Notes: generated by a model from the letters alone, not told the origin. DNA of 64,000 nucleotides from Ignavibacteriales bacterium (GCA_016192345.1 JACPUH010000002.1:8875-72874), one strand, 5' to 3'; positions 10,859-64,000 are shown, numbered from the stretch's first letter. Translations and numbers: made by a program.

Positions 10859-13186
10859 TCAGGCAAATTCCTTTTCCTGCACCGGCTTGGATTTCCCGTT
10901 CCCCCGATCACCCTCACGATGGTTTTTTATTCCCGCCTCGAGCCGTGCCGTCCGCACTTTGCTGACGATGGACAGGAACAGGCCGATGGAAATCAATGTT
11001 GCCGCGACCCATATCAGACTGATGAAGGGCTTGATGCTCGCCTCGATGACAAGCATCTCCGGTCCGGCAGCTTCTTCCGCGTGATCATCCAACCCTGCAA
11101 CCTCAACCTGGATGGAGGAGGTCTTGTTCTCGGGATTAATATTCATGCTCAGCATGGAAAATCCGGTTTTCCCATCCTTCAGCACAGCCGGTTTCACTTC
11201 GGGCTGTTGACCCTCCTTGTACAAGGTCACCGCGGTCACGGTTTCCTTCTTGCCGTCGCGCACAACCTCGAGAACGGCTCCCACGGGAAATCCGCTCGCC
11301 CCTCCCATCATACCTTCCATCCCGTGCTGGTTCATCTCGAAACGGACGAACGTGACCGACATATCACCGATCCTTGTGGCAACACCTTTGGAAAGGTCGA
11401 ACGCATGGTGTTCGTGACCTCCGGCGGTCGCCCGCTCCACCGAGACGGGCTCGATGTAGAAATCCTTCGTCATAAAACTCGCGTAATCCGGATTCCTCAT
11501 GATCTGGTCATTGTAGCTGCTCTTGAACATCACCGGTTCCAGGAGAAACGATCCGCCTTCACGGTCGGCCTTGACGAGAAATTTCCATTTTCCATTCTCC
11601 GTCGGTTGGGAGCCGGTATACGTCAACGTGTAGCCGAGGACCTCCTTCGGCTGACCCTGAGTCAGGGATGTCGTCTCTTTCTGTCCGTAGAATCCTGAAC
11701 CGATGATGCCGAGGAACAGGAGGGCAAGACCGATGTGCGCCATCGGCCCGCCAATCATGAACCAACCCTGTTTGCTTAATCGGTAGCCATGCGTAAGGTT
11801 CACAAAGAATGCAAAGAGGGAAGCAAACGCCAGGAGAGCCATCGACCATTCGTCCAGACCGCTCAACAGGAGGCCGAGGAGAACGAGCCCGGAGGCCCCG
11901 AGGGCAAAGGATGCGCGTTTCATGAGGCCATGTGCCGATTCCTGCCGCCACAGGACCAGGAGGCTGATCCCGAGCACGAAGGCAAGAGCAATGGCTATCG
12001 GCAGGTTCATCCGATCGTAGAACGACGGCTCCACAGTCGAGTTACCGACGATCGGCCAGCTCGTCCCGAAGAAAATAATGATTGCGCTTGCCGCGAGCAC
12101 GGCCGTCATGATGGAGATCAACGATTCGCGGGTCATCATACCAACCTTGCCGGCGAGCGGTTTCAGTTCAGTCCAACGCCGGGCAAGCAGCCCGAAACCA
12201 AGTCCTGCAACGCCCAACAGCCAGGCAACCAGGAGGGTATAGACAAACGATCCCGGATCGGTAAAGGAATGAACGGACGCGGATCCGAGAACACCGCTGC
12301 GGGTAAGAAACGTGCTGTAGACAATGAGGGAGAATGTCAGGATTGCCAGAAAGAAATTGGTGCGCGCAAGATTCCCGGTGAGCTTCTGTACCACGAGTGT
12401 GTGGAGCAGTGCCACGCCGGTGATCCAAGGAATCAACGAGGAATTTTCGACCGGATCCCATCCCCACCATCCTCCCCACCCCAACACGCCATAGGCCCAG
12501 TATCCGCCGATCATGATACCGGCTCCCAGCCAGAGAACGCCGAAAAGGACCCAGGGCAAAGCCTTGGGGATCCACTCACGGAAGGTCTTCTTCCAGAGCG
12601 CCGCAACAGCGAAGCAGAATGGAACCTCCATGGCTGCAAATCCGACGAACAGGACAGGGGGATGGATGATCATCCAGAAATTTTGGAGCAACGGGTTCAG
12701 CCCCTTGCCATCCGCCGGTATCGCCCCAACGGCCATCTGTTCGGGATAGGCATCCCAGATATATTGAAAGGGGGATTTTACAATCAACAGCAACAAGAGG
12801 AACGCCTGAACAAATCCGTACACGGCCATGACTTCAAATTCGACCTTTTGCCGTTGAGTGTATCGCTGCAAGCCGATTCCGATCAGTGTGCTGCACAGGG
12901 CCCAGAACAGGAAGCTCCCCTCCTGCCCGGCCCAGAACGTTGTGATGAGAAGGTGGCTCGGAAGGTCACGGGAACTGTAGCTCCAGATGTAACCATATTC
13001 GAATTGATGACGCAGGATATACATCATCAGCAGAACGGACACCGCCACCACTCCGCCGGCCATAAAGAGAAAGCTTCTCCGCGCCAGGGGTACCAGCATC
13101 TTTCTCGTTGTCGCGCTTTGATAGTATGCGTACGTGGACACGAGGGCTGCCGCAAACGCCATCCAGATAATTACCGTTGCTATCAT
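10859..13186 (-). CDS. ccmF: Cytochrome c biogenesis heme lyase CcmF (System I)
   Basis: FWAGQEGSFLFW, GLNPLLQNFWMIIHPP, WWD motif WAYGVLGWGGWWGWDPVENSSLIPW, TFLTRSG...SVHSF; many TM helices. Confidence 0.95.
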   Translation of the reverse strand: MIATVIIWMAFAAALVSTYAYYQSATTRKMLVPLARRSFLFMAGGVVAVSVLLMMYILRHQFEYGYIWSYSSRDLPSHLLITTFWAGQEGSFLFWALCSTLIGIGLQRYTQRQKVEFEVMAVYGFVQAFLLLLLIVKSPFQYIWDAYPEQMAVGAIPADGKGLNPLLQNFWMIIHPPVLFVGFAAMEVPFCFAVAALWKKTFREWIPKALPWVLFGVLWLGAGIMIGGYWAYGVLGWGGWWGWDPVENSSLIPWITGVALLHTLVVQKLTGNLARTNFFLAILTFSLIVYSTFLTRSGVLGSASVHSFTDPGSFVYTLLVAWLLGVAGLGFGLLARRWTELKPLAGKVGMMTRESLISIMTAVLAASAIIIFFGTSWPIVGNSTVEPSFYDRMNLPIAIALAFVLGISLLVLWRQESAHGLMKRASFALGASGLVLLGLLLSGLDEWSMALLAFASLFAFFVNLTHGYRLSKQGWFMIGGPMAHIGLALLFLGIIGSGFYGQKETTSLTQGQPKEVLGYTLTYTGSQPTENGKWKFLVKADREGGSFLLEPVMFKSSYNDQIMRNPDYASFMTKDFYIEPVSVERATAGGHEHHAFDLSKGVATRIGDMSVTFVRFEMNQHGMEGMMGGASGFPVGAVLEVVRDGKKETVTAVTLYKEGQQPEVKPAVLKDGKTGFSMLSMNINPENKTSSIQVEVAGLDDHAEEAAGPEMLVIEASIKPFISLIWVAATLISIGLFLSIVSKVRTARLEAGIKNHREGDRGNGKSKPVQEKEFA

Positions 13187-13230
13187 GATTCTCCTTCAAT
13201 AAAGAATAGTGTTGTGATATGTCCCTCTAA

Positions 13231-13246
13231 AGCAATCTTTATGCCA
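13231..13246 (-). promoter_or_regulatory. Sigma54 -24/-12 promoter of ccmF
   Basis: Minus strand TGGCAT-AAAGA-TTGCT, consensus spacing, about 46 nt before ATG 13186. Confidence 0.75.
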
Positions 13247-13474: not shown

Positions 13475-14668
13475 TTACGGCTTCCTCATTTCTTCGATGG
13501 AGTCGTTGAGCAACTGAATGGCGTACTGCGGATTATGAATGCCCCCGCTCTTATCGTGTTCGATGAAGAAATAGTTGTACAGAGCGCCGGCCTTGCGAAG
13601 TCCTGCAGGCCCGACGAAAGTCCGCGGACTCGAGCTGCTGGCGCTTGAGGTTCCGTTGTTAGCCTGGACCAACCCGCTGGAACTGAGGATGCCTTTCGCC
13701 TGCAACAGCGTCGCCAGAGTGTCCAGGTATTCGTGGACATATTTATGGGCGCCCATGCCACCTGTCAGTGTACCCGAGGTTCCAACGTAGGTGTCCACAT
13801 TCATGGTGGCATGACATCCGGACTGGCGACAGCCGTTGGTGTTGTAGGCAGTCGTTGTGCCGGAGGGATATCCAATCACGTTCGTATGGCCACCGTTGCC
13901 TCCAGAAACAGGCTGCGCCATATGGCAGGTGGGACATCCACTCTGGGTGATTCCAGACTGCGTGGAGTGCGGTGAATTCACATAGGCCTTGCCCGGAAAT
14001 TCAAAGCCTCCCCCCTTCCCGGCTCCCAGGAACATCAGACCCTGCACACCATAGTGCGGATACCACCGGTTCGTAGTGATTTTGAGTGTATCAGTCGCAC
14101 CCGCGGTCGTCTTCATCTTGGGTGTGAAGCCCGACGAGCGGGGTTGATGGCAGTTCAGGCAAATATTTCCCTTGCCTAAATTGATCGTCTGGTCGGAGAT
14201 CCCTTCCATCGGAGACCAGAGAACAACGCTGGCTTCCGTCCGACGTGAGAAGTCCCCCTTCGAGTGTGGGGAATGACAGGCAAAGCATCCCACCGGGGAG
14301 GGCCTGTACTGGTTTGTCACCACGCTCCAAACCGCCGGCAAAGATTGGGGAGGGAAGCCCGCCTTGGCCCTCTGGACGAATCCTTCGGATGTATGGCAAC
14401 CCGAGCATGGGGCAGTGTTGCGGTCGTCAAACGTTCCGCCGGTGACATGGCCTGCCTGCGCCCATTGGTATTTTACCGCCCAGACATAGTAGGTCGTATC
14501 GATGTCCGGATTGTGGCAATTGCCGCAGTTAATCCCGGGAGCAAACCCTTCGAGATTCACGACCGTTGATTCACCTGACGGTCCTTGCGGCCCTTCCGGT
14601 CCGCGGCAAGCGGACAATGCCATCAGGACCACCGCCACCGTCGAAAGAGCAAGAAATCGTTGAGTCAT
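13475..14668 (-). CDS. Hexaheme lipoprotein cytochrome c (ExtD-like outer-membrane component)
   Basis: Lipobox LSAC, collagen-like GPEGPQGPSG linker, CGNCH, CSGCH, CFACH, CLNCH, CPTCH plus CRQSGCH (CX4CH), C-terminal GIHNP. Confidence 0.85.
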   Translation of the reverse strand: MTQRFLALSTVAVVLMALSACRGPEGPQGPSGESTVVNLEGFAPGINCGNCHNPDIDTTYYVWAVKYQWAQAGHVTGGTFDDRNTAPCSGCHTSEGFVQRAKAGFPPQSLPAVWSVVTNQYRPSPVGCFACHSPHSKGDFSRRTEASVVLWSPMEGISDQTINLGKGNICLNCHQPRSSGFTPKMKTTAGATDTLKITTNRWYPHYGVQGLMFLGAGKGGGFEFPGKAYVNSPHSTQSGITQSGCPTCHMAQPVSGGNGGHTNVIGYPSGTTTAYNTNGCRQSGCHATMNVDTYVGTSGTLTGGMGAHKYVHEYLDTLATLLQAKGILSSSGLVQANNGTSSASSSSPRTFVGPAGLRKAGALYNYFFIEHDKSGGIHNPQYAIQLLNDSIEEMRKP

Positions 14669-14698
14669 ATTGTTTCCTCCTGAGCAATACCGTTCAGA

Positions 14699-15583
14699 TT
14701 AAAATTCAAACTCGCCTGTCCCGATACTGATCTTTCCGTTGATGTGTTTGTTGGTGTTAATAATTTTCATCGATGCATCGACCACCTCTTCGTGGCAACG
14801 GCTGCATGGGGTTGTTGCAAAATCATAAACGGGATGCGTCCCACCCTGGGCCGTCGTTTTTGGCAAAGCCCGCTCTGCCAAGGTCGGCTTCGTCACATCC
14901 CCGTGACAGGTTCCGCAGGCCGCTTGCGTCCCGGAGACATCATTCCAGACCGGAGCAAAATTATTGCCGTTCCTGAAATTCCCGTGGCAATAGGTGTTGG
15001 AACATTTGAGGGTCTGTGGGTCATAGGACGGAGCAGGGGTAGGCTGCGGGAGATACGACCTCGCGAACAGAATATCGGCAGGTGTAACGACTCCGGCGGC
15101 ATCAATGTGACCGGGCGAAGAGACGGACGAAGGAACGGCATGACATTCCGTGCAAGGAGCATTCCTGGAGATTGCGCCCCCCAGCAAGTGCAGCTGGTGC
15201 GCCCCAACAGCCCGGGCCGTGCGCGCGGTATTCCTGCTCAGGTCGCGCGGGGGAGCCGGGTTCACCGTTCCATGGCAGGTGGAACAATTTTCCGGGCCGG
15301 CCGCGTTGGTATGGCATGTCAGGCACGAAGTCTGTGCAATGCCGCCGTCATACCGGGAACCATGACATGTCTGGCAACGCTTCATATCCCAACCCTGGCT
15401 CCGGATTTCCATCCCGTGAAAGTTGGCCGATGCGGGTGTCGTCCAGCCGTCGGGATGCACCTGCAATTCCCCCGTGGAGGGGGCCGGCAGATCCGTCTTC
15501 AGTTCACTGCAGCCGGTCAATCCGAAGGCCACGACAAGCGCCAGAAGGACACCGGAGAGACACACTCTATGCATGCTTTTCAT
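14699..15583 (-). CDS. Heptaheme lipoprotein cytochrome c with Geobacter-type CxxxxCH...CxxCH domain
   Basis: Lipobox LTGC; CQTCH, CLTCH, CSTCH, CTECH, CSNTYCH, CGTCH, CSRCH; CSNTYCH...W...CGTCH and H.NG.I match the CxxxxCH/CxxCH repeat style. Confidence 0.85.
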   Translation of the reverse strand: MKSMHRVCLSGVLLALVVAFGLTGCSELKTDLPAPSTGELQVHPDGWTTPASANFHGMEIRSQGWDMKRCQTCHGSRYDGGIAQTSCLTCHTNAAGPENCSTCHGTVNPAPPRDLSRNTARTARAVGAHQLHLLGGAISRNAPCTECHAVPSSVSSPGHIDAAGVVTPADILFARSYLPQPTPAPSYDPQTLKCSNTYCHGNFRNGNNFAPVWNDVSGTQAACGTCHGDVTKPTLAERALPKTTAQGGTHPVYDFATTPCSRCHEEVVDASMKIINTNKHINGKISIGTGEFEF

Positions 15584-15612
15584 GATCGATCTTCCAGAAC
15601 AGAAGTGACATG

Positions 15613-16851
15613 TTACTTATGGCAATATCCGCAGAAGCCCGTACCCTTCACACCCCCGACACGAGCGTTGGCATCGCTGTGACACGTAAAGCAATTGGCT
15701 CCGGGATCGCTATGCCAGTCGCCGTTCACCCCGGCCATGAATCCGCGGATGTGCGTCTTCGGATCCGTCCCTTTAAACCCGTCGGAATCCATATGGCAGG
15801 TGACACATGTCGGATCAGCGCCCTGAGCGTCATGACAGGAAGCACAGGTTTCCATGTCGCGTCGCGCCAGTTGTGCATGCAAACCGCCACCGGTTCCGAC
15901 GCCAATCGTCACGAATCCCGCCTGCTGATGCGTCGTTGGCTTGAATGTAACTTGATTGACATTTCCCCCTGCGGCGTGACACGTTGCGCAGAATTGTCGC
16001 TGACTGTGACAGGTCTGGCAATCGGCCGCTTTCCCCTGGGCCGCGATGCCGTGGGTGAAACGGAAGTTAAGATCGTGCACCTTCAGGAGCGAGGTCGATT
16101 TGCCGCGGTCCATCGTCATCAATCGGGGCGAGCGCGGAGAGATCGGGTCCCTCCCTGCCAAATCCACCTTTATGAGGTCCGTACCGTTGTGGCAATCGAT
16201 GCATGATTCCTGGGTGTGACAGCTTGCGCAGGACGCAGTGGAAAGCCGTGCGGTCTGTTTATGCTCCCGGACAAAATCAGTTCTGTTATGGTCCACCGGG
16301 CGAAGGCCCGCAAGGTCCGTATGACACGTTTCGCAGGTGTTCGAGGCCTGCACATCATTGTGACACGTATTGCACGTAGCCATGGCGGGAACGAGCGCCC
16401 CTGTGGGCATGCCTTCCTTTTCGAGATTGGTATGGCACGTGACGCAATCCATTTTTTGAACGCCGACATGCGCCTCGTGCGAAAAGACCAGCTCGCGCTG
16501 CGGACTTGCCGCCGCGGCGTAGGTGCTTTGGTCGCTGCTGGTATGGCAATAGGTGCAGTTCTGTGCCAGTTGCTCTTCGTGGCAACTCTGGCAGTTTTCT
16601 TTCTTGGCCAAGAGGTTCTCGGAAGAGAGCTTGCTCGTCGCAGCAGATTCATGGCAGGTGGCACACTCCAGGCCCGCGCCTTCCACATGCAGGGAGTGAG
16701 AGAACCTGATCGCTTTCGGTTGTTCCGGCTGGTCACCGACCTCCCTGGACTTCGTGACCATCGTGAACATAAGGGCGAGGACGCCGGAAATCATGACCAG
16801 CGCATACACCTGCTTCAGCGTCAATAGTCGGATTCGTCGGAGGATAGACAT
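15613..16851 (-). CDS. 14-heme periplasmic cytochrome c (c3-like N-terminus; ExtA-like)
   Basis: N-terminal hydrophobic signal/anchor, FSHSLH and FSHEAH c3/c7-type motifs, 14 CxxCH counted; starts 7 nt after the porin stop. Confidence 0.9.
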   Translation of the reverse strand: MSILRRIRLLTLKQVYALVMISGVLALMFTMVTKSREVGDQPEQPKAIRFSHSLHVEGAGLECATCHESAATSKLSSENLLAKKENCQSCHEEQLAQNCTYCHTSSDQSTYAAAASPQRELVFSHEAHVGVQKMDCVTCHTNLEKEGMPTGALVPAMATCNTCHNDVQASNTCETCHTDLAGLRPVDHNRTDFVREHKQTARLSTASCASCHTQESCIDCHNGTDLIKVDLAGRDPISPRSPRLMTMDRGKSTSLLKVHDLNFRFTHGIAAQGKAADCQTCHSQRQFCATCHAAGGNVNQVTFKPTTHQQAGFVTIGVGTGGGLHAQLARRDMETCASCHDAQGADPTCVTCHMDSDGFKGTDPKTHIRGFMAGVNGDWHSDPGANCFTCHSDANARVGGVKGTGFCGYCHK

Positions 16852-16858
16852 AAGGGGC

Positions 16859-18151
16859 TCAGAAAATATTCAATCGTTCGCTGACAAGAAAACTTCCGCG
16901 CACAAAAAACCTCACATCACTTTGGTAGATCGTATTCTGAATCCATTGGACCTGGGTATCGAGGCCAAGAGCGGGGACCGGCCGGAAGGCAACCCCGATG
17001 GCTGCGCTCAAGGCATCCTCAAGCTTCGAGGCAGATTCACTCAGTTTATACTTTGCATAGCTCAGCAGGAGCGACGGCGTCAGCCTGGCCTCCATCAGCG
17101 GATAGCTGACTTGGGCGGAGGCGGCGCTCAGTTCACCGGCATAGCCCACGTTCCGGGCAAGACTGACGGAAACATATTTTCCGCTCACACCCAGCGTCAC
17201 GCGGTCCGACGATTCGCCATCCCCATAGTCAACCGACCCGTATTTACCGAAGAGCTGCCATGAGGTCATCAGCGCATATTCTGCCCCCACTTCATACTCT
17301 TTCAACGTGTTGAATGTAAAAACCGAGAAGATGGAGTTGTAGGAGATGCGGGGCTCGCGCTGGAGGTATTCTCCCGTAAGACCAAGCGATTCCATCACCT
17401 TGACACGCGTAAAAAACTGGGCGCGCGCCATCTTTTCCGTATCAAAATCATAATCATAGCGGGCATACCCGGAGACAAGGTCTTCATAGTCAACGTTCAC
17501 ATCGCCGCTGAGGTAGCGCTCCGAGCTCGCCATCGGCTTGATTTCAACCAGGTACGGATTAAAGAGCGAGTCGCGTCGGTATGCGCTGTAGGGCTCCGCC
17601 TGAATTGTCCTGTTCATGTAACTGACGGAAACGCGGGCAGCCTCAAGAGGCTCTGCAACAACCTGGGCACCGGCCATCCTGTTATTGCTTTTGTCGCCGA
17701 TCATTTCCGCCTTCGATCCCGGGGGCGGAAGCGCTCCATAGTACCCGACGACCTTGAGCCTGGAATCGAGAAATTTCAGCGAAGCCAACCCACCGTCGAT
17801 GGTCCCGTTTCCCACACCTGCAAAGACCAGCTGCCGTCCGACGCTTACGTTCGCCACATCGAAAATATTGGACCATTTCAGATAGAGATTGTAGAGCCGG
17901 TACTTCGATTCTTCCGCGACGGGTCCACTGAGATCGGTAAAACCGTTGCCGTAGGCATGGAACGAAAGGTCGCCTCCGGTCAATGACAACGAGAGGGAGG
18001 TGTGACCAAAAAGATGATCGGACGAGCGGCCAACGGTGTCCTGGCGCTGCCAGGCGTAGGCCGACGTCACCACCCTGGCCTGAAAGAGCTGGGCCGAAAG
18101 GGTTGAGGTCACAAGTGCTGAAAGGATAAGGAACTGCAGGAGCCTTCGCAT
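16859..18151 (-). CDS. Outer-membrane beta-barrel, porin of a porin-cytochrome complex
   Basis: Signal peptide MRRLLQFLILSALVTSTLSA, alternating hydrophobic beta-strands, C-terminal Phe (...SERLNIF); start at ATG 18151 with GGAGA RBS; about 430 aa. Confidence 0.8.
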   Translation of the reverse strand: MRRLLQFLILSALVTSTLSAQLFQARVVTSAYAWQRQDTVGRSSDHLFGHTSLSLSLTGGDLSFHAYGNGFTDLSGPVAEESKYRLYNLYLKWSNIFDVANVSVGRQLVFAGVGNGTIDGGLASLKFLDSRLKVVGYYGALPPPGSKAEMIGDKSNNRMAGAQVVAEPLEAARVSVSYMNRTIQAEPYSAYRRDSLFNPYLVEIKPMASSERYLSGDVNVDYEDLVSGYARYDYDFDTEKMARAQFFTRVKVMESLGLTGEYLQREPRISYNSIFSVFTFNTLKEYEVGAEYALMTSWQLFGKYGSVDYGDGESSDRVTLGVSGKYVSVSLARNVGYAGELSAASAQVSYPLMEARLTPSLLLSYAKYKLSESASKLEDALSAAIGVAFRPVPALGLDTQVQWIQNTIYQSDVRFFVRGSFLVSERLNIF

Positions 18152-18192
18152 GGTCGTTTCTCCAAAAAATAGAATTCCATCCACACTCCGTT

Positions 18193-18209
18193 TACAACTG
18201 CCGTGCCGA
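18193..18209 (-). promoter_or_regulatory. Candidate sigma54 promoter of the porin-cytochrome operon
   Basis: Minus strand TCGGCAC-GGCAG-TTGTA, about 43 nt before ATG 18151; TTGTA at -12 is the variant seen in E. coli pspA. Confidence 0.5.
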
Positions 18210-18222
18210 CATGCAAAAACCG

Positions 18223-18315
18223 GGAAAACCTCCGAGGTTGTTCAAAAATTCAACAATTTTTCCGGTCCAGTGTAGACCTTTCCTACACCTAAGAAACAAC
18301 CGTGGGAGGTTTTCC
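18223..18315. other. Multi-branched inverted-repeat element between c554 and the porin
   Basis: Outer 11-bp GGAAAACCTCC/GGAGGTTTTCC, inner 7-bp GGTTGTT/AACAACC, enclosing hairpins AAAAATT-CAAC-AATTTTT and GTGTAG...CTACAC. Confidence 0.55.
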
Positions 18316-18343
18316 AGAATAGGGGAATATGGTCCGGTCCGAT

Positions 18344-18889
18344 TTACCCGGCTTTCGGGACCGGATGATGGATCTTCTCCCAGTACTCTTTGAATTTGAA
18401 CTCCTTATAGAACGGACTCTTCGCATTGTGGCATGTTTTGCAGAATGCCTCGATCGCGGCTTCATCCTTGAACTCCGTCAATCCTTCCGCAACAGCTTTC
18501 TCCTTGCTCTTCATGACTGTCATGTTGCGATAGGCTGAACCGGCGCCATGGCATGTTTCGCACTGCACGCCGTCTTTGATATCAAAACCCTTGTCGAGCA
18601 GTTTGGCATCTGCAACCGTGGTATGGCACTCAAGGCACTCTTTGGCTCCTGCCGCCGGCCCAGAGATGCCTTTCGCCTTGGCAACCTCATCGGCTTTTGC
18701 AGTTGTCAAAGTCTTGTAGGCACCGGCATGGGCGCTCTTCATCCATATATCCTTTTGCTTACCTTGTTTCTCCGTCTGGTGACACATAAAGCAAGATTTT
18801 GTCCCTACATACTTCTTCTGCGCGCTTGCCACAGTCGGCACGAGTAAGACGATGGCAACTATCAAGCTGGCAGCATTGATTGTCTTCAT
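18344..18889 (-). CDS. Tetraheme cytochrome c554-family periplasmic protein
   Basis: Signal peptide; YVGTKSCFMCH...W..SAH..AY, CLECH, GVQCETCHGAGSAY, CKTCH. Confidence 0.9.
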   Translation of the reverse strand: MKTINAASLIVAIVLLVPTVASAQKKYVGTKSCFMCHQTEKQGKQKDIWMKSAHAGAYKTLTTAKADEVAKAKGISGPAAGAKECLECHTTVADAKLLDKGFDIKDGVQCETCHGAGSAYRNMTVMKSKEKAVAEGLTEFKDEAAIEAFCKTCHNAKSPFYKEFKFKEYWEKIHHPVPKAG

Positions 18890-18954: not shown

Positions 18955-20298
18955 CTATGATGAGGTGGCACCTCTTCCCGGCAAATAGCTGTGAATCCGC
19001 TCTTCCACTTCTCTAAGCCCATGAGTTCGACCCTCTTCAATCTCCCATATCGAGATAAGGGGGAAGAACTTCGAGAACAGCATGAATCCCATGACGAAAG
19101 CTGATATCCCGCCTGCAAAGAGCGCCCATTCGAGGATGGTCGGCACATAAATTCCGGCAGGAAGGTCGAGCCGCGGGTTTGCGAGAGATGGTACGACGAT
19201 AATCAGGCGCTCCAGCCACATCCCGATCACAACGGCGACTGAAGCAATGAACATGCCCTTAATCGTCCGGAGTCTTCGGAAACTGAGTATGATGAGAGGA
19301 AGCACAAAATTGCACAAGACCATTCCCCAGAAGTAGAAGGCAAAAGGCCCTGTAAACTTGTACATAATGATATGCATTTCGTGCGGTTCTGCTCCGAACA
19401 CACCTGTCAGGTATTCTGAAAAAGTGAAATAGAACCAGATGATGGACATGATGAGGAGCAGCGTACTCAAGTACCGAAAATGAATTTCCTTCAAATACTC
19501 TTCAAGGTGGTACGCCCTCCGGAAGGCTATCATGACGATCATCAATGCTGCGATCCCGGAGAAGATTGCGCCCACGACGAAATAGGGGCCGAAGATCGTG
19601 CTGTGCCAGCCTGGCTGAAGCGTCATGGAGAAGATATACGATATCACCGTGTGAACCGAGATCGCGATGGGAATGACCATGATCATCAGAATATTAATTG
19701 CGCGGTTCAACACCCGTTGTTGGTGCTCCGTGCCGGTCCACCCCCATGCCATAATCGAATAAAGCCATGTGAGTTTCCCCCCCCGATCACGAATTCTCGC
19801 GATGTCGGGTATCATGGGCAAATACAAATAGACCGTGCTTGCTGTGAAGTAGGCGGTAATACTCGTAACGTCCCACAAGAGCGGTGATTGTAATCGTCCG
19901 GCAGTGAAGAGATTGAGCATTCTATCGGGCCGCCCGAGGTCAAGGATAGGATGCAACCCGCCGATGGCAAGGACGATGGCTGTAATAACTTCCGCCATGC
20001 GTGTGATGGGGCGCCGCCATTCCGCCTTTGAAAGTCTTAGAATTGCGGAAATCAGCGTGCCCGCATGGCTAATGCCGATGAAAAACACAAAATTGACGAT
20101 GTAGAATCCCCACGTGACCGGCTGATTCATCCCGGTCAGTCCCAGTCCGAACCACACCTGGGTGACATACATGTACAAAGCCCAGAGAAAAATGATCCCG
20201 AGGATTCCAAACGCGACGTAGAACCCCGTGCCTGTCTCGTAGATGGGCCTGAAAAGGGCTTCGTCGCGATCCTGCGCTGCGGTCGGTTTTGTTTTCAT
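18955..20298 (-). CDS. NrfD/PsrC family quinone-site membrane subunit (ActC-like sequence) of the Qrc/ACIII-related complex
   Basis: [58 protein letters not shown]; about 10 TM helices. Confidence 0.9.
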   Translation of the reverse strand: MKTKPTAAQDRDEALFRPIYETGTGFYVAFGILGIIFLWALYMYVTQVWFGLGLTGMNQPVTWGFYIVNFVFFIGISHAGTLISAILRLSKAEWRRPITRMAEVITAIVLAIGGLHPILDLGRPDRMLNLFTAGRLQSPLLWDVTSITAYFTASTVYLYLPMIPDIARIRDRGGKLTWLYSIMAWGWTGTEHQQRVLNRAINILMIMVIPIAISVHTVISYIFSMTLQPGWHSTIFGPYFVVGAIFSGIAALMIVMIAFRRAYHLEEYLKEIHFRYLSTLLLIMSIIWFYFTFSEYLTGVFGAEPHEMHIIMYKFTGPFAFYFWGMVLCNFVLPLIILSFRRLRTIKGMFIASVAVVIGMWLERLIIVVPSLANPRLDLPAGIYVPTILEWALFAGGISAFVMGFMLFSKFFPLISIWEIEEGRTHGLREVEERIHSYLPGRGATSS

Positions 20299-20984
20299 GA
20301 CCCGGTTCTTCTGGCTAAGTAGTATACTTTTGGTTTGACACCGAGATCTTCCCCGTACCGATACACGCGATAGCTGCGGGAGAGACGTGAGACGTCGCTG
20401 TCTCTGTTTTCAATGTCCCCGAAAACGATGGCGTCTGCCGGACAACTCTCCAGGCAGGCAGGAACATATTCCCCGTCACGAATCTGGCGATCTTCGATGT
20501 CCGCATTTTCTTTTACCTTCTGCAATCGGTGCGAACAGAAGGAGCACTTTTCGACTACGCCAACCATCCGTCGGGAAACATCGGGATTACCGACGTCGGA
20601 GGCTCCCTCAATCCATTTGGGGTCGTACCAATTGAACGACTTGGCAGTGAACGGACAGGCGGCCATGCAATAGCGGCAGCCGATGCACCGGTGATAAATC
20701 TGGGCCACAAGTCCCTCCGGATTGCGATACGTTGCACCAACGGGACACACTAGAGTGCAGGGGGGATCATCACAATGAAAGCACGGTTTCGGAACTCGCT
20801 TCACATGGGTGTTGGGATAATCCCCCTCGACTGTCGTCATCATGTCCATCCAAACCATGGCGCGGCCATTCCGGGCCTCTTCCGGATCGACGATGGGGAT
20901 ATTGTTCTCCATTTTGCAGGCCACGCTGCATGCCCCGCAGCCTGTACACTTGTCGAGATCAATCACCATTGCCCACTTTGGCAT
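20295..20984 (-). CDS. 4x[4Fe-4S] subunit (NrfC/PsrB/QrcC-like)
   Basis: CTGCGACSVAC, CFHCDDPPCTLVCP, CIGCRYCMAACP, CSFC...PACLESCP; start MPKWAMVIDLDKC at ATG 20984 with AAAGGAG RBS. Confidence 0.92.
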   Translation of the reverse strand: MPKWAMVIDLDKCTGCGACSVACKMENNIPIVDPEEARNGRAMVWMDMMTTVEGDYPNTHVKRVPKPCFHCDDPPCTLVCPVGATYRNPEGLVAQIYHRCIGCRYCMAACPFTAKSFNWYDPKWIEGASDVGNPDVSRRMVGVVEKCSFCSHRLQKVKENADIEDRQIRDGEYVPACLESCPADAIVFGDIENRDSDVSRLSRSYRVYRYGEDLGVKPKVYYLARRTGS

Positions 20985-21001
20985 ATCAGCACTCCTTTGT
21001 T

Positions 21002-23452: not shown

Positions 23453-23467
23453 AGCAACTCCGGTGTA

Positions 23468-23995
23468 TCATCGGTGGCAGGTGAGACAGTCGTTGGAAAC
23501 GTTGTTCTCGCGATGGCACTGCATGCAATTCTCCATCGTGATGGGAAGAAACTGGGAAGCAACGGGTTCGGTGAATCCGGATACATCGCCATGGCACGCC
23601 TTGCACTCGAGCCCTGCCTTGGTGACGTGACGCCGGTGGGAAAAATAGACATGGTCGGGCACATGATACACGCGCTGCCAGAGAATCAACTCCTCCTTCT
23701 TTACGAACTCGAGCAGTTTCACCTCTTCAGCCGACTGCGAGAGTGGTTGATCCGAGTGGCAGGTGCTGCAGACTTCGAGACTTGGAATCGAGGCGCTGGA
23801 AGAGGTCAGAACGGATGCGTGACAGTCGGTGCAGGTCATGCCGGCCGTTTCCATGTGAGCTTTGTGACTATAACGGATGGGCTGGGTTACGATGTCTCCT
23901 GAAGTTGAGGCAAGATAGACAACGACGACAATGAGTATACCAGCGGCAGCGCCGGCGCGTACCGTCCATTTCACAAAGGGTGTCATACTCTTCAT
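23468..23995 (-). CDS. Membrane-anchored pentaheme cytochrome c (QrcA/ActA-like)
   Basis: N-terminal TM; QPIRYSHKAH, CTDCH, CSTCH, PDHVYFSHRRH, CKACH, MENCMQCH, CLTCH. Confidence 0.9.
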   Translation of the reverse strand: MKSMTPFVKWTVRAGAAAGILIVVVVYLASTSGDIVTQPIRYSHKAHMETAGMTCTDCHASVLTSSSASIPSLEVCSTCHSDQPLSQSAEEVKLLEFVKKEELILWQRVYHVPDHVYFSHRRHVTKAGLECKACHGDVSGFTEPVASQFLPITMENCMQCHRENNVSNDCLTCHR

Positions 23996-25189: not shown

Positions 25190-25220
25190 ATCACTTCTCC
25201 TCTGTCTTTGATGTGGATGA

Positions 25221-28702: not shown

Positions 28703-28709
28703 AATGCTC

Positions 28710-31554: not shown

Positions 31555-31575
31555 GATGTTCTCCTGTCGTGTAGA

Positions 31576-42589: not shown

Positions 42590-42612
42590 GGTGGTTTCCG
42601 TCAGAAATACCA

Positions 42613-44091: not shown

Positions 44092-44104
44092 AAGATCCCT
44101 TTGT

Positions 44105-46330: not shown

Positions 46331-46345
46331 AGCCACGTTTCGCGA

Positions 46346-49224: not shown

Positions 49225-49745
49225 ACCCGCTCAATCCTTTCCTCAAGGTCCACAAGATGAAACCGCTCGAAGAGCGATCGTACTTCCTCCACCACGAAGG
49301 AGGCATTGTCCTGGATGAGGACAAGGATGAACCGGTCGTTCGTCGCGCCATCATAGATGAACGCCGGTTTTTTCCCTGGCCAGAGTTTCCTCATTGCCAG
49401 AAAGAGCAACACGGTCCCCACTCCCGCGAACAGGACCATCACCTCAAATGTCACCGGCACAAAGGCGGGGACGGACTTCAACGGCTTGCCCCCGACGTTC
49501 ACCGGCCAACTCGTCGCCGAGGTCCAGATCTGAAACCATAATTTCGCGACAGCCCCTGAAATACCCAGGATAAGCGTGGCCCATGCCAGCCTCGTCGAGC
49601 GCATCCCCATTGCCTTGTCCAAACCATGCACCGCAAACGGCGTATAGGCATCGAGAATGGTATACCCATGCTCACGCGCCGCTTGCGTCGCGGCAAGAAG
49701 ATCGTTTTCATGGGCGAAGGAACTAACCAACAAGCGTCTGCTCAA
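49221..49745 (-). CDS. actD: Alternative complex III subunit D (DUF3341)
   Basis: [21 protein letters not shown]...[22 protein letters not shown]; TTG start. Confidence 0.93.
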
Positions 49746-51141
49746 GCGCTCCCTCCTTTCGTGGTTCCAACGGTTTCAACTCACTCCGGCCCTTCCCGTA
49801 TCGGACGACTCCCTTGACTTCGCCTATGGCGATCATCGGCAGAAAGCGGGCGAAGAGTAGAAAGAGGGTGAAAAAGAGGCCGAAGCTTCCGAGCAGGGTC
49901 GTCAAGTCGATGATCGTCGGCGTGAACCCTGCCCAGCTTGCCGGGAGGTAGTCCCTGGTCAGCGAGGTCATAATGATAACGAATCGCTCGAACCACATAC
50001 CGACATTGATAAGGATGGACAACGCGAAGACGATGCCGGGGTTTCTCCTGATCTTCTTCCACCAGAAAAGTTGGGGGACCATGATGTTGCAACCCACCAT
50101 CACCCAGTACGTCCATCCGTACGGGCCAAGGGCCCTGTTGATAAAGGCAAAGCGTTCATATTCGTTCCCCGAATAATAGGCGACGAAGAGTTCCGTCATA
50201 TAGGCCAACCCGACCATCCCCCCCGTCGCGATGATCACTTTGCACATCTGCTCGATGTGGTGGAGCGTGATGTACTCCTCCAGGTTCATCACCTTGCGGA
50301 CGATCAGCATCAGGGTCAGCACCATCGCAAATCCGGAGAAGACCGCCCCGGCGACGAAATACGGGGGAAGGATGGTGGTATGCCATCCCGGGATGACCGA
50401 GGTGGCAAAATCCCAACTGACGATCGTATGCACGGAGACGACGAGCGGAGTCGCGAGCCCGGCCAGCAGCAGGTAGAGCTTCTCATACCGCTGCCACGTC
50501 CGGTTCGAACCGTCCCAGCCAAAACTGAAGAACCCGAAGAGCTTCTTGCGCAGGGCCGACTTCGTCCTGTCGCGAATGGTCGCCAGGTCGGGAATCATCC
50601 CGACATACCAGAACAGGGCGGAGATCGTCAGGTAGCAACTGATCGCAAACATGTCCCAGACCAGCGGCGAGCGGAAGTTGACCCACAGCGGACCGCGGAA
50701 ATTGGGATACGGAAGGAGCCAATAAGCAAACCATGGCCGGCCGGTGTGGAGGATCGGGAAAATCCCGGCGCATATGACGGCAAAGATCGTCATCGCCTCA
50801 GCCGACCGGTTGACGGAGGTCCGCCATCGCTGCCGGAAGAGAAACAGGATGGCGGAGATCAAGGTCCCCGCATGCCCGATACCGATCCAGAACACAAAGT
50901 TGGTGATATCAAATGCCCATCCAACGGTGTTGTTCAATCCCCACACCCCCACTCCTGTCATCACCTGATAGGCAACCGACAGAGCACCGAGGATCAGGAC
51001 TCCGACGGAGACGATGAACGCAATCCACCAGGAAAGCGACGCTCCCTTCTCGAGCGGCCCGCACACATCATCGGTGATGTCGGCATACGTTTTATTTCCC
51101 AGTACCAGCGGCTGACGGAGCACGGAGAAAACCTCACCCAT
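49723..51141 (-). CDS. actC: Alternative complex III subunit C (quinol-binding, NrfD family)
   Basis: [76 protein letters not shown]. Confidence 0.96.
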
Positions 51142-54139
51142 GGATCCCGGCTCCTTTCTCGTTGGCGGATGGCCTGGATTCAGAGTCTTCTGTGTCCCGA
51201 ACCAGGGTCATATATCCGATGGAAGGACGCACCCCCAGTTCCTCAAGGACTCGATAGAAACGCGGCTCGGTCATGGCTCGTGAAATCCGACTCTCCGGAT
51301 CGTTCATATCTCCGAAGGTGATCGCGTCGGCAGGACACGATTGCTGGCAGGCAGGTTGTATATCACCATCCCTCAGGGAGCGGCCTTCGTTTTTCGCTTC
51401 GATCTTCGCCAGTTGAATACGTTGGACACAGAAACTGCATTTCTCCATCACTCCACGCTCACGGACTGTCACATCGGGGTTCAGCACCATCCGGTGGAGT
51501 TCGTCCCCCCTCGGGTACTCAAACCAGTTGAAGTGGCGAACTTTATAGGGACAGTTGTTGGCACAATACCGCGTCCCGACGCAGCGGTTATAGATCTGCT
51601 GGTTCAATCCCTCCGAATCGTGAACAGTCGCAAGAACCGGACAGACCGTTTCGCAGGGGGCGTTGCCGCAATGCTGGCACATCATGGGCTGGTGGGAAAC
51701 GGACAACTCGCCGTTTTCATTGTCGTAGTACCGGTCGATGCGAAGCCATTGAAGCTCCCGGTTTCTCCCCACTTCATCTTTTCCGACCACCGGGATATTA
51801 TTTTCGGCCTGACACCCGATGACGCACGCCGAACAACCTGTACAGGCAGAGAGGTCGATAGCCATGCCCCATCGATGCCCATCATACTGGTGGTCATCCG
51901 GCCAAAGGGACTCGATCTCATGTTTCCGAAAACTCCCTGCCGATGGATCCTTGGCATAGGCTGCGAACGAAGTTTGCTGGATGATCGGTCGCCTCTCCCC
52001 CGTTCCCCCACCAAGCAGGTCCGGATTGGTCAGCGAATGATACTCCTGCGTCGAAGCGAGGGGATGCTTCCTGCCGGTTTTGGCAATCGTGACACTGAGA
52101 TTCGTGTACGCCAACTCCCCGTTTTCGAACCGAAGAAGCGTTGCAGCGTTCACACCGACAAGCTCCCCCGGCGCGACGGTTGGCTTTGCCTGAAGCCACT
52201 TGGGACCGACGTCGATGAAGCGGTCGGTTCCTTTCCTTCCGTACCCGAGGGCGATGGAAAGAACGCGATCATGCTGGCCCGGCTGAAGATGCGCGGGAAG
52301 CTCCAAACGGCCCTTTTCCTCGGTTTGAATGGTAACCACATCCCCCTCCCCGATCCCCAGGTTCGCCGCCACGGTCTCCGAGATCGACACGTAATTATCC
52401 CAGACGATCTTCGTCACCGGGTCGGCCAATTCCTGAAGCCACGGATTATGAGCGTGCCTTCCGTCCAACATTGTCAACGATGAGTGAAGGACGAGGGCAA
52501 AGGCACCTTCTGCGACCGGTTTGGGACTTGATGAACGTGGATGGAGAGCATCTCTCTTCAGAGACTTGACCTTGACTCCCTGGCCTTCGACCTCGACAAA
52601 TCCATCGTGCAACGTTTTGTTCCAGAATGCCGTGAACGATCGCTCCTGATTCCGCCGTCGAAACACGGAACGCTCCCACTCCTGCCTTATGAGGTCATAG
52701 GCTCCATGCCTCTCTCCCAACCACACGCTCAGGCTTTCTCCGAGAGTACGCGTATCTCTCAACGGCTGAATGGTCGGCTGCGACAGCGAAACGATCCCGG
52801 CAACAGTTTCTGCGTCGTTCCATCGTTCGAGTTCATGGGGTTGCGGCATGACAACGCGGGCAGTCTCCGATGTTTCGTCGACTCGTTCGGCAAAACTCAC
52901 CATAAGCCTGATCCTGGAAAACGCCTCCTTCAAAGCGGTCGAATCGGGAAGGTCGTAGAGAGGATTGACCCCTTCCACAAAGAGTGCTTGAACCGACCCG
53001 GACTGAATTTCGTCAATCAACCGGGTGAGCTCGCCATCATCTCCACGGCACTGGTAAGAGGGATTTTCAACGTCAATGGTCTTCCCGTAGTTGCCGAGAA
53101 GGTCGTTCAGGAGATTGACCTGAACCTGGAGCCCGAGGTCGTTTGTACCGCAGACAATGAGGCTCCTTCCACGGGTCTGCCAGAGTCGATCCGCGATCCC
53201 GGTTAACCTGTTTTCCAGGTGCTCCGCAAGGTTGGGGGAAACTGAATGAGCGGACCTCCCGGCCCTAGAGGAAACAAGAGCGACGAGCCGGGAGGTAACA
53301 AGAGCGACTTCATCAGGGGATACGATGATCCGCTCATCCGCATTGCTGCCGGTCAAAGACAGACGGGATTCGATTTGCGTGTGATGGGAGAATTTCTGCC
53401 CGGAGCCTTCCAGGGAGCGTCCGGCTCTGTATCCTTTCGTGAACTCGACCGGCGAGATCCAGGTCCCGAGGAAATCCGCGTCGAGGCTGACGATGGTTTC
53501 AGCTTGTTCGAACCGGAAACGGGGAAGGAGGCGACTTCCGTGCGTGTACTGATGGGCATCCAGGATGGCCGAAGAAGAGACGGGATCATACTCTCCATGC
53601 CTCCCGTCCTTGAAGGAGGCGAGAAACCGGCCGATGAGCCCCCGCGTTGTCGGACTTGTCACACTCCCCGTAAGGAATCGGACAGCCCCGCCGGAGTTTT
53701 TGATTGCTGCAAGTTCCGTCATGACTTCGGCGTCGACCTGATCCCATGTTGAAGGTGACCCCTTCAGCAGAGGACCATTCAAACGTTGAGAGTCGTAGAG
53801 AGAGACAATAGCCGCCTGCCCAATGGCACACAAACCGCCGCGGGAGACGGGGTGTGCCGGATTTCCCTCAATCTTGATCGGCCTCCCATCGCGGTTCTTG
53901 ACAAGCACGCCGCAACCCGCACTGCACGCACGGCATGTGGAAGCAAACCAGTACGGAACTCCCGGTGTGATCTCCTCCGGCCGAAGGAGATACGGTATCG
54001 CGTTCTCCAGATTCGATTGCTGGCAACCGGCGAGGGCCGTACCGGCAAACGAGAATCCTGCGAGTTTCAGGAACGATCGCCGGCTGAACTCCTGGACCGG
54101 TTCCATCGCTTCATCGTGATCGTGATGTTCGTGGCTCAT
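51134..54139 (-). CDS. actB: Alternative complex III subunit B (Mo-oxidoreductase-fold B1 plus Fe-S B2, fused)
   Basis: Tat RRSFLK...GC; B1 with [10 protein letters not shown]; B2 [37 protein letters not shown] ([3Fe-4S] type), CSFC; start at ATG 54139 with AAAGGGG RBS. Confidence 0.95.
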
Positions 54140-54178
54140 ATCCCCTTTATGCCTTTTATTCCTTGCAGCCATTCTTGT

Positions 54179-54844
54179 TCAATGATGACACACAACACAA
54201 TCGGTGGACGCCGTGACCTTCCTCCCGGTCGATGCCGTCAAACCCGGATCCCGATGGCAGTTGACGCATGAACCCATCGAAAGGGAGGAAACCTGGCGTA
54301 CTCGCTCCATCGTCTCGACATTCCCATGACACGTCTGACACAGAACGCCTGCGTTGACATGCGCACTATGATTGAAATAGACGAAACTCGGAAGACTGTG
54401 CACACGCACCCATGCCACACCGGAGGCCGTTCGGGAAGAGTCGGGTTTCAGTTCGTCATCCAGCCCTGTAGTGGCATAGAGCTTTCGCAATTCGGGAGAG
54501 AAGATACGGCGCGGCGGTCGGTTCTCCTTGGCCGCCTGCTCGTCTTCAGCCCGCACAGAGAGAATCGGCGCGGTGACATGCTTGTGGCAGTTCATGCAGA
54601 CATTCGTGGACGGGATCCCTGCCGTGCGTCCCTTCTCGGCGCCGGTGTGACAATGCAGACACGAGATGCCAAGCTCCCCCGCATGGAGAAGGTGCGAGTA
54701 GGCGATCGGCTGTACCGGCTCAAAGCCCTGGTGATTGTCCGGCAAGCGCATGTTCACCATGAACGAGGTAAGGAACACACTCATGGCCAACAAGACTGCC
54801 ACACCCAATATGACCGACAACAATCGGTTGTTCAGAAATTTCAT
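54179..54844 (-). CDS. actA: Alternative complex III subunit A (pentaheme)
   Basis: One TM; PVQPIAYSHLLHAG, CLHCH, CMNCH, LPSFVYFNHSAHV, CQTCH, SMGSCVNCH, CVVCHH. Confidence 0.93.
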   Translation of the reverse strand: MKFLNNRLLSVILGVAVLLAMSVFLTSFMVNMRLPDNHQGFEPVQPIAYSHLLHAGELGISCLHCHTGAEKGRTAGIPSTNVCMNCHKHVTAPILSVRAEDEQAAKENRPPRRIFSPELRKLYATTGLDDELKPDSSRTASGVAWVRVHSLPSFVYFNHSAHVNAGVLCQTCHGNVETMERVRQVSSLSMGSCVNCHRDPGLTASTGRKVTASTDCVVCHH

Positions 54845-63000: not shown

Positions 63001-63707
63001 GCGTTGTACCAGTCGGCAGACTCCTGCACATCGGTCTGCTCCCCCCAGGTTTCCGGCGAGGCGGAAGGAAGGTCACAATACCAGTCGTAGAAAGAGAGGG
63101 AGACACCCCCCAACAACTGCATCAGGCGTGCGCCGGACGCATAACTCACCATCGACATGGCAGGGATCGGAGAGAACCCTGCAATACGATCGGGGCCGTG
63201 CGCCTTGATGGTGTGAACATTGGCCGCCGCGATGATCTCCAGTACTTCATCCCACGTTGTACGGCGGAATCCCCCTTTCCCGCGTGCCCGTTGCCAGCGT
63301 TTTCGGTATTCCTGTTTCGTCACCAGCGATTTCCATGCCTCCACCGGATCCTCAAATTCCACGCGAGCTTTTCTCCAGAGATCGAGCAGAGCGCCGCGGA
63401 TATAGGGATACTTCACGCGAAGCGGGCTGTAGAGATACCAGGAGAACGAGATACCGCGTTGGCAACCGCGCGGTTCATACGGGGGCAGACCATGCTCGAG
63501 GGATGGGTAATCAAGCCCCTGCATCTCCCATGTGACGATGCCGTCCTTCACATGAATCATCCAGGTGCAACTGCCGGTGCAGTTGACGCCGTGCGTGCTT
63601 CGCACAACCTTGTCGTGTTGCCAGCGATTGCGATAGAATTCCTCCCATCCGCGCAGAAGAGGATTCTCTTCGTCTTTGATCCAGTGAATCTTCTGTGTGT
63701 CGCTCAT
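60063..63707 (-). CDS. narG: Respiratory nitrate reductase alpha subunit (cytoplasmic, no Tat signal)
   Basis: [11 protein letters not shown] (FS0), YSWYLYSP-like [17 protein letters not shown] (Mo-ligand Asp), [31 protein letters not shown]; 1214 aa. Confidence 0.97.
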
Positions 63708-64000
63708 GCGTTACTCTCCAGTTGACGTTCTTGAACCAGGGGCCGACGTACGGCCCGAAAGCGTTTGTTCCACACCACATCGAAGACCCCGAGCACAATG
63801 AGTGTTCCCGCGAGGCCGATGAGAATGAAATTCAGGCGGGCGGTAGATGCATCTTCGGGGTTGCGAGTGAGGGTGTGCTGAAAATAGGCAACGAGGCTGA
63901 GGATCTCCTCGGATTCGAGCGGTTCCTTCCTGAAGACTGATTGCATCGTGGGCGTGGCCGGGGCGGAGAGCCAGATGGAGAGCGCCTTGCGCCCCTGATA
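63704..64000 (-). CDS. narC: NarC-like membrane-anchored cytochrome c, C-terminal part (runs off the right edge)
   Basis: Open frame from 64000: ...[31 protein letters not shown] + TM helix + basic tail, a class I cytochrome c C-terminus like Thermus NarC; ATGA overlap with narG. The heme motif itself is outside the window. Confidence 0.6.

Follow-up and report, generated by a model that had tools for sequence, protein, structure and literature searches.

A 64,000-nucleotide stretch of an Ignavibacteriales genome (GCA_016192345.1 JACPUH010000002.1:8875-72874), here called the window, raises the question of whether a single bacterium combines electron transfer across its outer membrane with respiration of nitrate to ammonium, and whether the two are connected. 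Its positions 10859-64000, 53 kb of groundwater Ignavibacteria genome, encode a surface cytochrome 'wire', six membrane complexes linked to quinone and a full nitrate-to-ammonium pathway (Table 1). We read this cluster as an anaerobic-respiration island of uncultured groundwater Ignavibacteria that joins an outward electron conduit to dissimilatory nitrate reduction to ammonium (DNRA), with a probability of roughly 0.6. Aquifers, sediments, anode biofilms and nitrogen-removal reactors commonly harbour Ignavibacteria, and what these bacteria contribute to the cycling of iron and nitrogen has been argued mostly from scattered gene matches. Here, one verified contig places a nitrate-to-ammonium route, genes for a trans-outer-membrane conduit and several links between quinone and periplasmic cytochromes in a single population.

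Gene identities were assigned by Pfam and NCBIfam profile searches, in which NarG, NarH, NarI, MoaA, NrfA and NrfH scored above curated equivalog cut-offs. Within transcription units, genes are mostly separated by 0–40 bp or overlap. The initial annotation, made from the sequence alone, had described a co-oriented cluster with 14 complete c-type cytochrome genes and 105 heme motifs. A programmatic count returned the same figure (101 CxxCH, 2 CxxxxCH, 1 CxxxCH and 1 CxxCK), all 44 genes of the cluster lie on the minus strand, and every module that had been named gave Pfam or NCBIfam matches: Nar, Nrf, MoaA, alternative complex III (ACIII), ImcH-like, Rieske/cytochrome b, Cbc-type, Qrc-like and CcmF-like. 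The heme motifs far exceed chance, since shuffling the residues of the 14 cytochromes predicts 0.6 CxxCH and the remaining 40 proteins (14,717 aa) contain a single CxxCH, located in NarH. The CcmF-like gene is the correct lower boundary of the cluster; the left flank (1-10800) consists of ordinary genes for malic enzyme, alanine dehydrogenase, acetyl-CoA hydrolase, an ECF sigma factor and OsmC. Two features go beyond the earlier inventory: a transketolase-like gene (tkt) and an aminotransferase gene within the cluster, and a fifteenth cytochrome gene cut by the window end.

Table 1 Features of the cluster, from the right end of the window to the lower boundary (TM, transmembrane; MFS, major facilitator superfamily; FeS, iron–sulfur; ORF, open reading frame; Usp, universal stress protein).
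Feature	Position	Strand	Basis or remark
NarC-like membrane-anchored diheme cytochrome c, 3' end (98 aa)	63704..64000	-	overlaps narG start
narG	60063-63707	-	respiratory nitrate reductase
narH	58563-60053	-	respiratory nitrate reductase
narJ	58015-58563	-	respiratory nitrate reductase
narI	57268-58011	-	respiratory nitrate reductase
NarK-family MFS transporter	55944-57281	-	TIGR00886 E 7e-43, below cut-off
8-TM protein	54884-55942	-	no family match in Pfam/NCBIfam
ACIII: actA-actB-actC-actD-actE-actF	47453..54844	-	directly after narK and 8-TM gene
moaA	46440..47456	-	TIGR02666 354 bits (cut-off 284); overlaps actF stop by 4 nt
Rrf2-family regulator	45869-46336	-	Pfam Rrf2 E 1e-34
YwiC-like membrane protein	44944-45762	-	Pfam YwiC E 8.5e-17
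nrfH + nrfA	42613..44743	-	ammonia-forming nitrite reductase
92-aa ORF, hemerythrin/RIC-like protein, Cys-rich protein, TonB-C protein, tandem Usp	39472..42613	-	Pfam
92-aa ORF, within the above	42335-42613	-	no family match
Cys-rich protein (134-140 aa), within the above	41424-41846	-	no family match
CbcL-like fusion: 13-heme periplasmic domain + FdnI/HydC-type b-cytochrome membrane domain	36643..38922	-	
Cbc-type pair: 19-heme cytochrome with C-terminal TM helix	34652-36646	-	Pfam/NCBIfam
Cbc-type pair: separate b561	33817-34659	-	Pfam/NCBIfam
tkt + class I/II aminotransferase	30310..33609	-	Pfam; housekeeping passengers
imcH-like, Rieske, cytochrome b, 11-heme cytochrome with C-terminal TM anchor	25696..30203	-	Pfam NapC/NirT, Rieske, Cytochrome_B
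imcH-like gene, within the above	28710-30203	-	
82-aa two-TM protein + periplasmic protein with four class-I monoheme c domains	24032..25469	-	Pfam Cytochrom_C, 4 stretches
Qrc-like: 5-heme QrcA-like, Mo-pterin-like, 4-cluster FeS, NrfD-type membrane subunit	18955..23995	-	
Mo-pterin-like gene, within the above	21002-23452	-	
Porin-cytochrome operon: c554-type 4-heme, about 24-strand barrel, 14-heme, 6+1-heme and 5+1-heme lipoproteins	13475..18889	-	
CcmF/NrfE-family heme lyase paralog, 775 aa	10859..13186	-	Pfam Cytochrom_C_asm + CcmF_C

The outward path is predicted to end in the porin–cytochrome conduit (pcc) operon, in which an outer-membrane β-barrel gene lies beside multiheme cytochrome genes and both a periplasmic and an outer-membrane lipoprotein cytochrome are encoded. 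The porin candidate (430 aa) has no Pfam match; it carries a Sec signal peptide and a C-terminal Phe, and its AlphaFold2 model is all-beta with about 24 strands (pLDDT 83). Foldseek retrieved outer-membrane barrels only, with a best query TM-score of 0.55 to the 24-strand usher FimD. Because MtrB was not among the top 50 of these barrels, we claim no specific relation to it. Homologs of the porin number more than 780, mostly from Ignavibacteria metagenome-assembled genomes (MAGs), and some have weak Pfam matches to outer-membrane proteins. The c554-type and 14-heme proteins carry Sec signals, while the two small cytochromes each have a single CX4CH motif, and their lipoboxes read LTGC and LSAC; PDB searches with these two lipoproteins gave no match and no OmcS/OmcE/OmcZ-type relation. 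Together, the modelled barrel and its cytochromes would be suited to carry electrons across the outer membrane. The same class offers a precedent in the Ignavibacterium album cluster IALB_1839/1838/1837 (Shi et al. 2014, PMC4245776), whose published pattern likewise comprises, in this order, an outer-membrane protein resembling porins, a 14-heme cytochrome of about 400 aa and an outer-membrane cytochrome with an atypical CXnCH motif. The window differs in adding the c554-type tetraheme cytochrome upstream, and a second lipoprotein cytochrome and the CcmF-like lyase downstream. This lyase gene occupies the same position at the end of the pcc operon in two related loci (L085 and L086; loci from other contigs are numbered with L), and its product probably attaches heme to the atypical CX3CH and CX4CH motifs. 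In another relative, about 1.8 kb of extra sequence lies between the c554-type and porin genes (L004:18569-20404).

Upstream of the conduit, the ImcH-like protein is one of several candidate menaquinol dehydrogenases. Hydropathy peaks at residues 15-33, 47-65 and 98-116 indicate three N-terminal TM helices; seven heme motifs follow, a CxxxCH at residue 130 and CxxCH at residues 155, 204, 313, 430, 450 and 490. Homology to NapC/NirT surrounds the third helix (PF03264, E 1e-11, residues 98-186), and residues 112-212 match the quinol dehydrogenase NrfH (PDB 2j7a). The same features describe Geobacter sulfurreducens ImcH (GSU3259), reported to have three TM helices, a first motif of CX3CH, six CxxCH and a NapC/NirT region (Levar 2014). 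All 120 best relatives of the window protein are ignavibacterial, at 66-99% identity. Whereas imcH is monocistronic in Geobacter, the gene here adjoins the Rieske, cytochrome b and 11-heme genes, with gaps of 8, -4 and -13 nt, and probably shares one operon with them. This order is kept in L003, L004, L007, L011, L034, L085 and L172, and the 8-nt spacing in seven of seven relatives examined. The cytochrome b matches models of b6 and of Geobacter ExtP. In limited literature searches, we found no paper tying ImcH to a Rieske/cytochrome b operon.

Two further candidates are of Cbc type. The CbcL-like protein fuses an N-terminal multiheme c domain to a C-terminal b domain of the HydC/FdnI kind (Pfam Ni_hydr_CYTB, PF01292, E 5e-18 at residues 525-707; TIGR01583, E 7e-14), the architecture of CbcL, MtoC and MtrH. 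Residues H534, H577, H591, H685 and H700 are invariant across 15 sequences (the fusion itself, relatives of it and the b561 encoded as a separate subunit), and the 13 hemes are kept in at least 10 relatives. A simple hydropathy scan gave four clear helices after residue 470, against the six TM helices in the definition of CbcL/MtoC/MtrH, and a PDB sequence search with the b domain found no usable match. Like Geobacter CbcL (GSU0274), MtoC, MtrH and CbcBA, the fusion and the neighbouring 19-heme/b561 pair join or pair a multiheme periplasmic domain with an FdnI/HydC-type diheme b domain with conserved His. Geobacter CbcL has 9 hemes, compared with 13 in the fusion and 19 in the split version here; published CbcL homologs range from 3 to 23. 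The likeness of the split pair to CbcBA is one of architecture, and its 19-heme cytochrome matches MtrA weakly (PDB 6r2q_A). The pair is present in L004, L005, L006, L012 and L172 and absent from L003, L007, L009, L011 and L085. Between the Cbc and ImcH blocks, the site of tkt and the aminotransferase gene appears to be an insertion-tolerant joint. In L085-L088, a formate-tetrahydrofolate ligase gene replaces these two genes (L085:8257-9930).

The Qrc-like module shares with Desulfovibrio QrcABCD the order multiheme c, Mo-pterin-like subunit lacking the catalytic ligand, FeS subunit and NrfD-type subunit, and its best NCBIfam matches are QrcA, QrcB and QrcC. It departs from Qrc in scoring below the family cut-offs, in a membrane subunit that is closest to DsrP, and in the 4x monoheme cytochrome c alongside, which also accompanies the module in L034 and L172. 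Moreover, the large subunit stands equally close to QrcB and ArrA and retains a full-length pterin-binding fold. It has a twin-arginine translocation (TAT) signal and keeps the FS0 Cys, and its best PDB match is ArrA (E 3e-86). Where ArrA and PsrA have their Mo-ligand Cys, the alignment shows a gap or 'FSSAQNN', in a segment that is hypervariable in 41 family representatives and rarely contains Cys. On account of this missing ligand and the hypervariable region, we do not favour reading the gene as that of a functional arsenate or polysulfide reductase; a Ser may serve as Mo ligand instead. We predict that the subunit works as a non-catalytic scaffold, as in Qrc and ActB, and have not filed it as Qrc.

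The nitrate end of the cluster begins with the truncated NarC-like gene. Its 98 residues are 100% identical to the C terminus of a 278-aa protein in the same-species contig L171 (L171:9168-10004), in which a signal peptide and a C-terminal TM helix accompany CxxCH motifs at residues 31 and 153, and whose gene also overlaps narG. Homologs lie upstream of narG in L104, L110 and L111. In architecture and in its position as the first nar gene, the protein resembles the membrane-bound periplasmic diheme cytochrome NarC of Thermus, which as a fourth subunit of Nar binds to NarI and is presumed to carry electrons between Nar and periplasmic partners. By analogy, the diheme anchor could wire Nar to periplasmic cytochromes. 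The nitrate reductase is of the NarGHI type, with NarG (1498 bits), NarH (655) and NarI (117) above their equivalog cut-offs and NarJ recognized by Pfam. NarG has no TAT signal; nitrate reduction is therefore cytoplasmic. An exact look-up of the window NarG returned no match, and one was obtained with P0565, a member of its 90% cluster.

Beyond the transporter genes, the complete gene set of an ACIII follows. ActA has five hemes, actB encodes a fused Mo-like and FeS protein with a TAT signal, actC an NrfD-type subunit and actE a monoheme cytochrome. These assignments draw on Pfam ActD (E 3e-49), NrfD, Molybdop_Fe4S4 and Fer4 matches, with ACIII structures among the PDB matches; actF was called because it stands last in the set, encodes about 10 TM helices and is 36-60% identical to its counterpart, the sixth gene, in other ACIII loci. 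The six-gene order is shared with 80 metagenome loci. From the narC-like gene through moaA (63.7 to 46.4 kb), the genes look like one unit, because they are separated by 0-40 nt or overlap, down to the moaA/actF overlap. Nitrite reduction is assigned to NrfA (627 bits, NF008339, cut-off 595), which has four CxxCH motifs and a CxxCK at residue 141, and to NrfH (152 bits, TIGR03153, cut-off 134), which has four hemes and a TM anchor.

From these parts we propose the following scheme. NarGHI would reduce nitrate to nitrite on the cytoplasmic side with menaquinol, and NarK would exchange nitrate for nitrite, exporting the latter. In the periplasm, NrfH would pass menaquinol electrons to NrfA for the reduction of nitrite to ammonium. 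Four candidate menaquinol dehydrogenases (CbcL-like, 19-heme/b561, ImcH-like and Rieske/cytochrome b/11-heme) would reduce periplasmic cytochromes of the c554 and 4x monoheme types, which in turn would feed the 14-heme cytochrome threaded through the barrel and then the two surface lipoprotein cytochromes. The conduit would thus deliver electrons to an extracellular or cell-surface acceptor, and the Qrc-like complex, ACIII and the NarC-like protein could act as contacts of the periplasmic cytochrome pool with the menaquinone pool or Nar. Clustering most likely reflects shared anaerobic regulation and a common need for cytochrome maturation and Mo cofactor, not obligatory mechanistic coupling. 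The initial annotation had suggested a switch between solid acceptors and nitrate, or DNRA driven by extracellular donors; such a functional link between surface electron transfer and nitrate reduction is a conjecture from co-location and was not supported. A reversed flow, in which a donor drives nitrate or nitrite reduction through ACIII, the Qrc-like complex and the NarC-like protein, is conceivable.

How much of this arrangement is particular to the genome was judged from its relatives. A scan of GTDB species genomes with the mid-cluster transketolase gave best matches (75-94%) in MAGs labelled Bacteroidota, Ignavibacteria, Ignavibacteriales or Ignavibacteriaceae, with conserved synteny, followed by a second tier at 66-70% in Acidobacteriota. 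The relatives that rank highest for the porin, ImcH-like protein and NrfA are likewise labelled Ignavibacteria or Bacteroidota; NCBI taxonomy places Ignavibacteria within Ignavibacteriota, in the Bacteroidota/Chlorobiota group. The initial annotation's guess of an Ignavibacteria-like organism distinct from Geobacter was thus right, and the conserved synteny it had proposed to look for exists. Ignavibacteria MAGs keep one order: TonB, Usp, CbcL-like, (19-heme + b561), tkt, aminotransferase, ImcH-like, Rieske, cytochrome b, 11-heme, (Qrc-like), c554, porin, 14-heme, lipoprotein cytochromes. Across these relatives the numbers of hemes do not vary (13, 19, 11, 14, 4 and 6+1). Two cassettes, the 19-heme/b561 pair and the Qrc-like set, are optional; the closest relative, L003, is without both. 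In the pairs L085/L086 and L087/L088 (ImcH-like 79%, NrfA 84-85%), nrfHA, hemerythrin, TonB and Usp genes run straight into the cytochrome block, and the linkage of nrfHA to the cytochromes is therefore recurrent.

For the nitrate block, a metagenome scan with ActB found relatives at 40-62% identity only, besides one same-species fragment. In 13 of the loci retrieved, narGHJI, usually with an MFS gene, lies directly upstream of actA, and the same-species L171 makes a fourteenth; none of these 14 has nrfHA downstream of nar-ACIII. Many more distant ACIII clusters (L115-L157, ActB 43-47%) have a NarI-like gene (27-40% identical to NarI) directly upstream of actA, without narGH. A nar-linked six-gene 'NrfD-type' cluster was reported in 2023 from Planctomycetota and KSB1 MAGs (PMC10732223); there too, nar lies directly upstream of a set of 5-heme cytochrome, Mo-FeS fusion, NrfD, ActD, monoheme c and ActF. 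Compared with that cluster and with Thermus narCGHJIK, which likewise starts with a diheme cytochrome gene, the six genes here are recognisably ACIII and moaA closes the unit. A NarC-like gene, NarGHJI and ACIII beside nrfHA were found only in this species. The island is two recurrent blocks, and the junction between them (moaA, Rrf2, ywiC, nrfH) is specific to this species.

The high novelty that the initial annotation had attached to the cluster does not hold, because its blocks are known and recurrent in the class. The pcc pattern was described in I. album in 2014, ImcH homologs were noted in Melioribacter in the same year, and in a 2018 tabulation Ignavibacteriae had three homologs of ImcH and two of CbcL. 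Anodes have yielded Ignavibacteria MAGs with large multiheme cytochromes and porin–cytochrome conduits. The 2012 paper on I. album reported nrfAH, an ACIII beside caa3 oxidase genes and neither a Rieske/cytochrome b complex nor nitrate reductase; Melioribacter roseus likewise has no bc1, and its multi-omics paper contains nothing on porins, ImcH or Rieske proteins. The remaining interest lies in the block junction, the ImcH-like/Rieske/cytochrome b operon, the nar operon with its NarC-like gene and ACIII, and the ligand-less Qrc-like cassette. The ImcH-like/Rieske/cytochrome b set, the NarC-like protein, the nar-embedded ACIII and the Qrc-like complex are targets for asking whether DNRA and extracellular electron transfer alternate or couple in groundwater. 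The value of the cluster is that of a well-resolved example and a source of hypotheses, not of a new kind of system.

Several observations weigh against the island as we read it. None of the RNA runs searched contains this sequence. Fe(III) or Mn(IV) oxides do not support growth of I. album, whose pcc cluster is of the same type (PMC4245776). The assignments to ImcH, CbcL, CbcBA and Ext are by architecture and family models; the four Qrc-like subunits do not reach the equivalog cut-offs for QrcA-D (97 bits against 180 for QrcA, 319 against 440 for QrcB, 285 against 400 for QrcC and 34 against 570 for QrcD), and the CcmF-like protein scores 253 bits with TIGR00353, below the cut-off of 569. Housekeeping genes break up the cluster and blocks are gained or lost between close relatives, which argues against a single co-evolving machine.

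Some of the same evidence would fit a role of the multiheme block other than solid-phase respiration, namely the handling of soluble or cell-bound substrates (humics, chelated metals, or sulfur or selenium species) or the buffering of electrons in the periplasm, with the nrf/nar neighbourhood carrying no functional meaning. The failure of I. album to use metal oxides is in line with this, as are the closeness of the cytochrome b to ExtP of the Geobacter selenite/tellurite ext operon and the presence of tkt, aminotransferase or formate-tetrahydrofolate ligase genes inside the block. So are the different Mo enzyme that stands beside nrfH in place of nar-ACIII in L087 and, in the more distant Ignavibacteria contig L089, the occurrence of nrfHA beside nos genes without the cytochrome block. 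However, nrfHA adjoins the cytochrome block in two further lineages (L085/86 and L087/88) and in the same-species L172, Ignavibacteria rich in multiheme cytochromes and porin–cytochrome conduits are enriched on anodes, and Fe(III) is reduced by M. roseus, one of the carriers of an ImcH homolog. We consider this explanation unlikely, though one to be taken seriously.

Less probable again is an inward conduit, in which extracellular Fe(II), a cathode or a partner cell would supply electrons that pass through the pcc into the periplasmic cytochrome pool and from there to menaquinone (by way of the Qrc-like complex, ACIII or both, acting as cytochrome c:menaquinone reductases) or directly to Nar (by way of the NarC-like protein), ending on nitrate and nitrite. 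The Qrc-like complex, the ACIII in the nar operon and the NarC-like protein could all link periplasmic cytochromes to quinone or Nar; NCBIfam names Desulfovibrio Qrc a menaquinone reductase, NarC homologs are discussed as electron carriers in either direction, CbcL/MtoC homologs occur in Fe(II) oxidisers, and the habitat is groundwater. Against this direction, ImcH homologs are reported only from Fe(III) reducers, the window contains no Cyc2, MtoA or other iron-oxidation marker, and the reduction of menaquinone by Fe(II) costs energy. In addition, relatives beyond this species do not have nar-ACIII next to their cytochrome block.

A more ambitious proposal, which we hold to be doubtful, is that the ImcH-like, Rieske, cytochrome b and 11-heme proteins form an undescribed hybrid quinol:multiheme-cytochrome oxidoreductase which, together with the NarC-type Nar, ACIII and the Qrc-like complex, would move electrons both ways between extracellular solids and nitrate or nitrite. 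If true, this would include nitrate ammonification driven by Fe(II) or a cathode.

It is highly improbable that the juxtaposition of blocks is an artefact of assembly or binning, or that the contig belongs to Desulfobacterota: nothing was found in favour, a local depth spike at narH being traced to cross-mapping of a conserved segment. Logan contigs from three runs tile 9001-64000 at flat depths of about 8, 35 and 25; neighbouring contigs meet directly or leave short gaps of tens to a few hundred bases, the main block junctions each lie within single contigs, and one 11-kb contig bridges nrfH to b561. GC content is uniform across the window (0.51-0.57). The gene order is repeated in two independent ENA contigs, of 72.7 kb and 46 kb, at about 96% nucleotide identity; between them they cover the stretch from the narC-like gene to actC and that from moaA to the 4x monoheme c gene. 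One 54-kb contig of LejiaF_55_30 holds copies of both cluster genes and the flanking acetyl-CoA hydrolase gene, at 90% identity or more, and the sequence is present in groundwater metagenomes. Chimerism was rejected on the flat depth, the junction-spanning contigs, the uniform GC and the repeated order, and a Desulfobacterota origin on the ignavibacterial relatives of the transketolase, porin, ImcH-like protein and NrfA.

Some minor features complete the description. Scans of the window turned up neither tRNAs nor members of Rfam families, the Moco riboswitch included, nor any meaningful tandem repeats. At the junction, the Rrf2-family regulator reached only 54 bits with the NsrR model, for which the cut-off is 182. 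Downstream of nrfA, the predicted di-iron hemerythrin protein shows weak matches to the repair proteins RIC, YtfE and DnrN, and the gene string from the 92-aa ORF to Usp also follows nrfA in L085, L087 and L172. The Cys-rich protein and the 92-aa ORF keep their position after the nrfA/hemerythrin genes in L083, L085, L087 and L172.

The transporter cassette between narI and actA varies within the species. A metagenome scan with the 8-TM protein gave no match, and in L171 (L171:16427-19352) two different MFS genes replace the NarK and 8-TM genes, with flanks at about 96% nucleotide identity; L112 is also pertinent to this swap. Upstream of its narC-like gene, the same contig (L171:1-9000) encodes a 435-aa heme-copper-oxidase-like protein that is a possible NO reductase, together with DUF2249, DUF1858 and TusA proteins, a small cytochrome c, a second Rrf2 regulator and HemN, and this region looks like an NO-handling neighbourhood.

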